Notes: a model not told the origin generated them from the letters alone. A stretch of DNA of 37,024 nucleotides from Candidatus Heimdallarchaeota archaeon (GCA_016839945.1 JAEOTE010000005.1:1-37024); one strand, 5' to 3'; positions 35,633 to 36,345 are shown, counted from the first letter of the stretch. A program made the numbers and translations.

Positions 35633-35948
35633 CGGTTAGGGTTTATAGGTCAAACAAGGACTAAAAAGTGGAACTGTAAACTGAACAGGAAGAGAATCCG
35701 ATGCTTCGCCCTTCCCCAAGGGAAAACTCGGGAACTGTGGTTGAACCCCTTTTTAGATGCCTGCACACGCGATGTGTAGCAGGAAAAATGGTTTGAACCC
35801 CCATTTGGGCTTAGTTAAGACCTCCTGAGCCTGAAAAAATCCCCCAGAACCAGACTATGTCTGATTTACAGACATCTTCTGTCTGCCAGAACCCCCAACC
35901 AAACCCCAGAAGCGTCGAGTTAGAATCCCCTTCCTGTTCAGGCAGAAA
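35633..35948 (+). ncRNA. Unidentified ~310-nt structured non-coding RNA candidate
   Basis: ORF-free GC-enriched island with a long closing helix (35681-35692/35930-35941 and 35699-35707/35909-35917), several local hairpins, G-U wobbles that work only on +, TATA upstream and T6 downstream. Confidence 0.6.
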
Positions 35949-35955
35949 TTTTTTC
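35908..35955 (+). repeat. 48-bp perfect direct repeat, copy 1 (att-like)
   Basis: AGAAGCGTCGAGTTAGAATCCCCTTCCTGTTCAGGCAGAAATTTTTTC, identical to 36298-36345. Confidence 0.95.
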
Positions 35956-35969
35956 TTATTAAACCTCTT

Positions 35970-36239
35970 CTAAAGATACTCTATAACTTCTTCTAGTTCT
36001 TCTATTTCTTCTTCGATCTTTCTTTCCTTCCTGTCTACATATATGCTTCCTATCCCTCTCAGTATTACCAAAATAACAATAATAACTCCACTTATTATAA
36101 TTACAGCTAACCATATAGGGAAATCTATACCAGTAAAAGCTTGAACATTCAGTATTTCCAATAGTATACAAAATAACATAAATCCTAAGAAAACCTTTTT
36201 TAGCTTATTTTTTCTTATTTCCAAATATATACTCTCCAA
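35970..36239 (-). CDS. Small two-TM membrane protein between the direct repeats
   Basis: 89 aa, TTG start, two hydrophobic helices, acidic tail KIEEEIEELEEVIEYL. Confidence 0.65.
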   Translation of the reverse strand: MESIYLEIRKNKLKKVFLGFMLFCILLEILNVQAFTGIDFPIWLAVIIISGVIIVILVILRGIGSIYVDRKERKIEEEIEELEEVIEYL

Positions 36240-36297
36240 ATTAGCAAATTTTAGCCATTATATGTAAACTTCTTCATATTTATGGATTTTGCAGGTT

Positions 36298-36345
36298 AGA
36301 AGCGTCGAGTTAGAATCCCCTTCCTGTTCAGGCAGAAATTTTTTC
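36298..36345 (+). repeat. 48-bp perfect direct repeat, copy 2 (att-like)
   Basis: Identical to 35908-35955, offset 390 bp. Confidence 0.95.

Follow-up and report, generated by a model that had tools for sequence, protein, structure and literature searches.

The window analyzed here, a DNA stretch of 37,024 bases, is the entire contig C39 of a Candidatus Heimdallarchaeota archaeon genome (3.0 Mb in 186 contigs, 88% complete). The locus is ordered as an SBP5 gene, a PAC2 gene, an RNA gene, a stretch of variable DNA, and, in most of the lineages examined, a gene encoding a polyacidic protein; in G001, G004, and G009, the genomes examined past this last gene, ELP3 comes next. In the window, the variable DNA consists of a small cassette lying between two copies of the tail of the RNA gene (Table 1).

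Table 1. Features of the RNA locus in the window (positions counted from the first base of the 37,024-base contig)
Feature	Position	Strand	Basis or remark
TATA-like box of the RNA gene, ATTTAAATA	35604-35612	+	Function inferred from sequence
5′ motif half	GGAA outer helix 35670-73; CUGU central 35674-77; AAA bulge 35678-80; inner strand 35681-92	+	BHB-geometry scan
Predicted excised RNA body, ~268 nt, possibly circularized; no Rfam family	35679-35947	+	Motif
Repeat copy 1, the RNA gene's working tail	35908-35955	+	Repeat search, DNA search, BHB-geometry scan
Parts of copy 1	Helix strand 35909-17; loop 35918-29; inner helix strand 35930-41; GCAG 35942-45; bulge AAA 35946-48; T6 35949-54	+	
Palindrome CCTG-TT-CAGG, perfect, 10 bp	35933-35942		Read from the sequence; center of the minimal segment common to all copies
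Cassette body, unique, 342 bp	35956-36297		No DNA homologue in 24 genus genomes except GAA-rich low-complexity matches
Cassette gene, 89 aa (or 84 aa from TTG 36224), membrane ORFan	35970-36239	-	ORF search
TATA-like box of the cassette gene, TTTACATATAATGG	36255-36268	-	Inferred from the minus-strand sequence
Repeat copy 2, displaced tail (attR-like)	36298-36345	+	Repeat search, genome search
Polyacidic gene, 5′ part, EE(E/D)(I/V) repeats	36464-37024	+	ORF search; comes after the cassettes in all cases where it borders on the RNA

The RNA gene and its duplicated tail

The RNA is an unclassified gene of ~270 nt that is conserved in the genus. The region spanning positions 35600 to 35960 was matched in 22 of 24 genus genomes and in three further family members, with no match in 30 genomes of other families. 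Searches of the same region with Rfam, at both gathering and permissive thresholds, and with ARAGORN returned no family and no tRNA or tmRNA. RNase P RNA and SRP RNA were rejected as possible identities, both being located on other contigs of the genome. A TTTAAATAGGTTGG block is also present upstream of the RNA in relatives, and the RNA itself contains lineage-specific hairpin insertions of the kind typical of structured RNAs. Across 18 species, the RNA helices tested were 97.4% paired, compared with 31 to 50% when the partners were slid, and compensatory changes were found at two pairs of a third helix. The conserved hairpin at 35808 to 35831 has a loop, UUAAGACCUCCU, that is largely invariant in the 18 species and contains CCUCC, which we take to resemble the 3′ end of 16S rRNA.

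The archaeal splicing endonuclease recognizes a succession of a helix, a 3-nt bulge, a 4-bp helix, a second 3-nt bulge, and another helix. A bulge-helix-bulge (BHB)-like motif with this geometry was found at the RNA in the window and in 10 of 10 relatives scanned. In the window, CUGU pairs with GCAG to form the 4-bp central helix, the two bulges are both AAA, and the inner helix comprises 12 bp. Pair counts over the 18 species gave 100% pairing for both the central and the inner helix, and the outer leader/trailer helix covaries, with GGAA/UUUU here and AGGGA/UCCCU, AAAGGG/CCCUUU, or AAGAGGA/UCCUUUU elsewhere. Judging from this processing motif, the RNA would be excised and may be circularized. 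The same end arrangement is present in archaeal BHB-excised circular RNAs, i.e., tRNA introns, circular rRNA intermediates, and the Thermoproteus SRP RNA, whereas the Heimdall RNA fits no described family and its motif is known here from the sequence. In all 55 fetched loci with a match to the 5′ half of the motif, this half is present exactly once, and it is never duplicated.

A 48-mer at the 3′ end of the RNA gene occurs in exactly two copies, which are 100% identical, on the same strand, and 390 nt apart, as found by both a repeat search and a DNA search. No such match arose in 100 dinucleotide-preserving shuffles (0/100), and no third copy was detected genome-wide, even when 3 mismatches in 38 nt were allowed. 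An earlier note made from the window's sequence had described this repeat as the 3′ strand of the closing helix of the RNA together with its T-tract. The repeat search and the motif scan agree with that description, since the 48-mer contains both the strand at 35930 to 35941 and the T-tract at 35949 to 35954. Read in order, it holds one strand of an internal helix (the 3′ one) and then a loop, followed by the inner-helix strand of 12 nt, GCAG, the bulge AAA, and a T6 serving as both outer strand and terminator. The view of the repeat as a helix plus a terminator nevertheless had to be refined, as the 48-mer is the complete 3′ half of the BHB-like motif. A further refinement is that the boundaries of the duplication are ragged among relatives.

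The sole long open reading frame (ORF) in the 342 bases between the repeats lies on the opposite strand and encodes the single 89-residue membrane protein that the earlier note had recognized; it is overlapped by a second frame of 70 codons (35959 to 36171). Two hydrophobic segments and an acidic EEEIEELEE tail characterize the predicted protein, and a GGAG-type ribosome-binding site, GGAGAG, is located 7 nt before the alternative TTG start codon. The protein shows a weak, sub-threshold match to the Pfam holin-X family, and a search of 5.8 billion proteins recovered no homologue beyond its own sequence. Based on repeat, ORF, and Pfam searches, the unit is att-flanked and devoid of recombination or transfer genes, and no terminal inverted repeats were found at the ends of the cassette. 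The 3′ end of the cassette ORF (35987 to 36026) is ~78 to 90% reverse-complementary to the EEEI repeats of the polyacidic gene (36650 to 37020), a likeness that may be fortuitous, the sequence being GAA-rich, or a remnant of how the cassette arose.

The polyacidic gene is interrupted by the end of the window. Its C-terminal part was found on contig C85 (G000:C85:8929-9300), the contig break falling within the polyacidic repeat, and C39 and C85 are probably neighbors. Because the gene runs off C39 and resumes on C85, the window genome has exactly one cassette.

Cassette arrays in related genomes

Between the RNA and the polyacidic gene, related genomes carry 0 to 6 tail-bounded cassettes of ~0.46 to 8.8 kb, and the contig of the RNA holds 1 to 7 tail copies, all on the same strand, these counts being drawn from incomplete bins and from relatives that are not independent samples. 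The 390-bp unit of the window is the smallest cassette seen. Genome G001 contains six cassettes (2708, 794, 2328, 798, 757, and 8774 bp) and seven tail copies, with paralogous cassettes in tandem. Five cassettes were found in G004, two in G014, at least two in G007, and at least one each in G006, G017, and G020, and the metagenome contigs L062 and L067 hold two each. All displaced tails lie in the orientation of the RNA and on its contig, and none is dispersed. The earlier note had named a dispersed repeat as an outcome that would speak against insertion; with two copies in the window genome and the tails of relatives all at the RNA locus, this is not the case.

A comparison of strains for empty sites revealed a clean one in G009, in which the polyacidic gene directly follows the RNA. 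In the closest relative, G003, the flanks are 88% identical, and a different gene and a 66-nt displaced tail precede the same polyacidic gene. Genomes G004 and G007 share a cassette carrying a gene for a 158-aa protein (85% nucleotide identity) as well as a SecY-like cassette (78%), and the positions of these cassettes in the arrays differ. Taken together with the varying number of cassettes, the empty site, the different cassette in G003, and the changes of position bear out the suggestion of the earlier note that the RNA tail is an integration hotspot. The G003 contig in question (G003:C261; L055 / L078), which carries the Heimdall-specific locus with 88 to 95% identity, was deposited as Candidatus Thorarchaeota isolate QM1B.68, a label that is probably wrong.

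The cassette genes of relatives are found on either strand, and from their sequences the cargo would consist mostly of surface and membrane proteins. Several gene families recur. One encodes proteins of 214 to 225 aa that combine a signal peptide and a C-terminal anchor with many N-glycosylation sequons; the rest comprise NosD/beta-helix proteins, membrane proteins with a zinc ribbon, a paralogue of SecY, and ORFans. The SecY paralogue is full length and was found as cargo behind the RNA at three loci (L025:4794-6080 in G004, L027 in G007, and L072:301-1587), with a Pfam SecY match of E = 1e-50 in G004.

The minimal segment common to all displaced copies extends from -4 to about +27 relative to position 35929 and practically coincides with the 3′ half of the motif. 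The left edge of the duplication is ragged, ranging from -4 to -29 nt, with total lengths of 66 nt in G003 and ~140 nt in G022, and the right edge is sharper within one genome. Because the duplicated segment varies from ~31 to ~140 nt, a fixed-length target-site duplication is ruled out. Duplication by a transposase or casposase, or of a CRISPR-like type, was likewise rejected given the varying lengths and the lack of terminal inverted repeats. The ragged left edge fits homology-driven as well as site-specific events. All tail copies within a genome share the variable dinucleotide of that species, and therefore the cassettes either circulate only within the lineage or have their copies made in place. 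Distal tail copies tend toward more decay. In two displaced tails (L062, oriented position 9278, and G020:C54:32279-32305), CTTG-TT-CAAG replaces CCTG-TT-CAGG, a double change that keeps the local palindrome and weakens pairing with the 5′ strand of the RNA.

The window genome was also searched for comparable structures elsewhere. No displaced tail was found within 30 kb behind any of its 25 tRNAs, and exact direct repeats across the genome were mostly coding repeats. A 42-nt near-perfect direct repeat on another contig (G000:C82:1602-1735 and 3230-3298) begins ~20 nt after a tRNA-Gly gene and recurs 1.56 kb downstream, without including the tRNA.

Candidate recombinases and the polyacidic protein

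No recombinase or nuclease domain was found in any cassette ORF examined, and no recombinase fragment was seen in about 30 cassettes from more than 10 genomes and contigs. The earlier note had proposed an integrase-less cassette, either mobilized in trans or a relic, starting from the way in which tyrosine-integrase elements duplicate the ends of RNA genes. Its first element is retained, with no recombinase found in the cassettes examined, but the assumption of a tyrosine integrase is not supported. The corresponding Pfam domain, PF00589, has no match on the contig of the window and a single match in its genome (G000:C183:7553-7975; L059:3095-4393), which is split by a stop codon. Among the five genus genomes searched, PF00589 gave one match in G001 and none in three (G004, G009, and G014), G004 being the genome with five cassettes. 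A XerA-type enzyme may therefore be missing from the lineage.

Large serine recombinases carry an N-terminal catalytic Resolvase domain with a serine nucleophile. All five genus genomes checked encode compact serine recombinases of ~250 to 270 aa, in which a Resolvase domain is joined to a C-terminal recombinase-like domain. The window genome encodes two of them, of 249 aa (G000:C15:11607-12353) and 267 aa (G000:C58:1151-1954), both without a zinc ribbon and both with best matches to large-serine-integrase profiles (phrog_95, XisF, and CcrA). The 249-aa protein is 72 to 94% identical in 28 of 30 family genomes and turned up in none of the 30 non-family genomes searched. In four genus relatives, its identity reaches 82 to 83%, compared with ~50% for the neighboring SDR gene and the downstream gene when these were recovered. 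Serine recombinases would thus be better candidates than a tyrosine integrase, and what ties them to the site is co-occurrence within one clade. They could equally serve in chromosome-dimer resolution, since tyrosine recombinases are largely missing.

The gene that closes the array encodes a protein with a possible connection to these enzymes. Orthologues of the polyacidic gene close the array in G001, G004, G014, and G009, and the gene, which is near single-copy, was detected in 18 of the 24 genus genomes searched. The C-terminal 120 aa of the polyacidic protein match the recombinase (DNA-binding) domain of the A118 integrase (4KIS, E = 1.7e-4), and this domain also matches the C-terminal domain of the compact recombinases (hhalign 77 to 84%). 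The orthologues have only this recombinase domain behind the polyacidic N terminus, with no catalytic Resolvase domain bearing a serine nucleophile. By these profile matches, the polyacidic protein appears to be a paralogue of the compact serine recombinases minus the catalytic domain.

We also considered whether the polyacidic gene could be an old cassette. This was rejected, as no decayed tail follows it in five genomes and alignment scores were within the range of shuffled sequences. In G005, G008, and G018, the polyacidic gene is located on a contig other than that of the RNA. At two such loci (L087, G008:C50; L088, G005:C43), it lies with genes for beta-helix surface proteins in the absence of the RNA gene or any tail copy, and in the clade of G005 and G008 housekeeping genes come directly after the RNA gene.

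A search for a free attP-bearing element gave no match in viral contigs, and the matches in genomes and metagenomes were chromosomal Heimdall loci apart from three (L045, L066, and L068), which lie on GC-rich or otherwise unrelated contigs and were taken as chance. Similarly, within a limited sampling of 31 family genomes, viral contigs, and 13 metagenome contigs, no cognate integrase-bearing element was found at the same site.

Origin of the arrays and known parallels

Our preferred reading, to which we assign a probability of about one half, is that the RNA tail is a recurrent docking site at which a tail-bearing cassette, likely a circle, recombined inside the shared 48 nt with catalysis in trans. 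The 390-bp unit, most likely in circular form, would carry the membrane-protein gene along with its own copy of the RNA tail, and this copy would recombine conservatively with the chromosomal tail. As a result, the RNA gene would keep a complete tail, and the second copy would come to lie between the cassette and the polyacidic gene. Arrays would then grow by repeated insertion at the RNA-proximal copy and be shuffled by exchange between copies. The palindrome within the minimal common segment is a possible center of the crossover, a post hoc and speculative suggestion. Since the cassette lacks a recombinase, catalysis would be provided in trans, and we infer that one of the compact large-serine-integrase-type recombinases is the preferred candidate for the enzyme. 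The restoration of the tail at each insertion marks the RNA as functional and strongly constrained.

Homologous recombination alone is a serious rival, albeit in our estimation a somewhat unlikely one. The same history of insertions would have occurred without a dedicated recombinase, the invariant tail serving as portable homology: circles would leave by recombination between two tails and return, to the chromosome of their own or another cell, through a single crossover at the RNA tail, and unequal crossing-over would shuffle and duplicate the units. Several features of the arrays speak for it: the wide range of duplicated lengths and their ragged left ends, the lack of a recombinase in or beside the arrays, the presence in every tail copy of the variant bases of its own species, and the tandem paralogous cassettes of G001. 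However, crossovers in 31 to 48 bp of homology are inefficient, and how a new gene first acquired a tail would be left unexplained. In addition, within one genome the repeat ends rather sharply on its right side, and no stacking of tails occurs behind the tRNAs of the window genome, so the process is not general there.

It is improbable that the window unit is instead the relic of a larger virus or plasmid that entered the RNA tail with its own integrase and was reduced by internal deletion to the 342 bp between attL and attR. Although elements bearing an integrase commonly enter the 3′ ends of RNA genes and leave direct repeats (PMC3146451 for tmRNA), and a broken tyrosine recombinase is present elsewhere in the genome, the two 48-mers would have had to stay identical while all else was lost. 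Against a relic also stand the lack of recombinase fragments in about 30 cassettes from more than 10 genomes and contigs and the content of the cassettes, compact units in which families of surface proteins recur in place of viral or plasmid genes; viral contigs, moreover, yielded no element carrying this site.

We give still less credence to a homing-like repair of a double-strand break, whereby a donor allele would supply a new tail and extra DNA, with the old tail staying downstream. Such repair would dispense with an integrase, tolerate variable duplication lengths, and leave the RNA gene intact, yet no nuclease gene was recognized in any cassette, and that of the window encodes only the 89-aa membrane protein. 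Least likely of all are an assembly artifact and a second tail kept as an alternative 3′ partner of the motif for longer, cassette-including circular RNAs. Against an artifact, 48 nt is shorter than the k-mers given in the contig titles of relatives (k127 and k141), and many independent assemblies, among them a 701-kb contig, show this architecture. As to an alternative partner, an identical copy 2 would indeed pair with the 5′ half upon read-through, but transcription should end at the T6 that follows copy 1, the cassette gene lies antisense to any such read-through product, genes in the cassettes of relatives occupy either strand, and distal copies decay.

For the preferred reading of insertion at the RNA tail, the nearest described parallel is found in Dehalococcoides, in which islands are stacked at the tmRNA gene (ssrA) with a 20-bp tail repeat and CcrB/CcrA-like serine recombinases have been proposed to act (PMC3146451). 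Sixteen of these islands have a six-gene integration module next to attL, and some are cis-mobilizable islands without integration genes (PMC3146451). Both systems involve a single-copy structured RNA as the target, a repeat corresponding to the 3′ end of its gene, downstream stacking in one orientation, and integrase-less units. In contrast, the Dehalococcoides islands measure kilobases to tens of kilobases, whereas the Heimdall units go down to 390 bp and one gene, with no recombinase in any. Moreover, instead of a 20-bp repeat from a tmRNA, the Heimdall repeat comprises 31 to 66 nt or more of an unclassified RNA with a splicing-type motif, in an Asgard host.

Integron cassettes end in an attC site, which is an imperfect palindrome of variable sequence, and they are mostly promoterless and in one orientation. 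Like integrons, the Heimdall locus gathers mostly single-gene cassettes at one platform, each closed by a repeat, with a content that varies between close relatives and a recombinase outside the cassettes. Unlike in integrons, no IntI-type gene adjoins the array, the sole PF00589 match of the genome being the broken one on C183, and the repeats are copies of an RNA tail rather than attC sites. The cassette genes occupy both strands, that of the window having its own TATA-like box, and the platform is an RNA gene rather than an attI site with a Pc promoter. Integrons have now also been reported in Archaea (PMC9668308).

As in the genomic islands and proviruses of tRNA and tmRNA genes, the Heimdall repeat is the 3′ end of the target RNA, and a replacement tail keeps the gene intact. 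Those elements, which include archaeal integrations of the SSV and pNOB8 types, rely on tyrosine integrases and encode their own. The Heimdall target differs in being neither a tRNA nor a tmRNA according to ARAGORN and Rfam, and its cassettes contain no integrase. Aloposons are tRNA-integrating elements of Heimdallarchaeum with giant genes (PMC8813620). They were rejected as an explanation, being unrelated to this locus.

With these parallels in mind, the locus resembles an integron in how it would gather accessory genes, and it seems not to have been reported before: we found no published description of the RNA or of the cassette arrays in the literature. A fuller version, which we put forward tentatively, is that of a new integron-like capture platform in which the dock would be the 3′ half of a circular-RNA motif, the cassettes would be minimal circles carrying surface and membrane genes, and the enzyme would be a compact serine recombinase encoded in the chromosome, confined to the family among the genomes searched, and possibly controlled by the polyacidic protein. 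The same logic may apply at the tails of other conserved RNA genes across Asgard archaea.

No prokaryotes are more closely related to eukaryotes than the Asgard archaea, whose means of gaining and exchanging genes are an open question. The present locus is a defined site of turnover for surface and membrane genes among close relatives, with integrase-free units as small as 390 bp. To our knowledge, the organisms concerned currently have no genetic tools; if the recombinase and the circular intermediate prove true, the short, defined site would offer a natural landing pad for such tools. Under the same condition, the system would also represent a second, independent invention of the integron principle, anchored to an RNA and probably driven by a serine recombinase.
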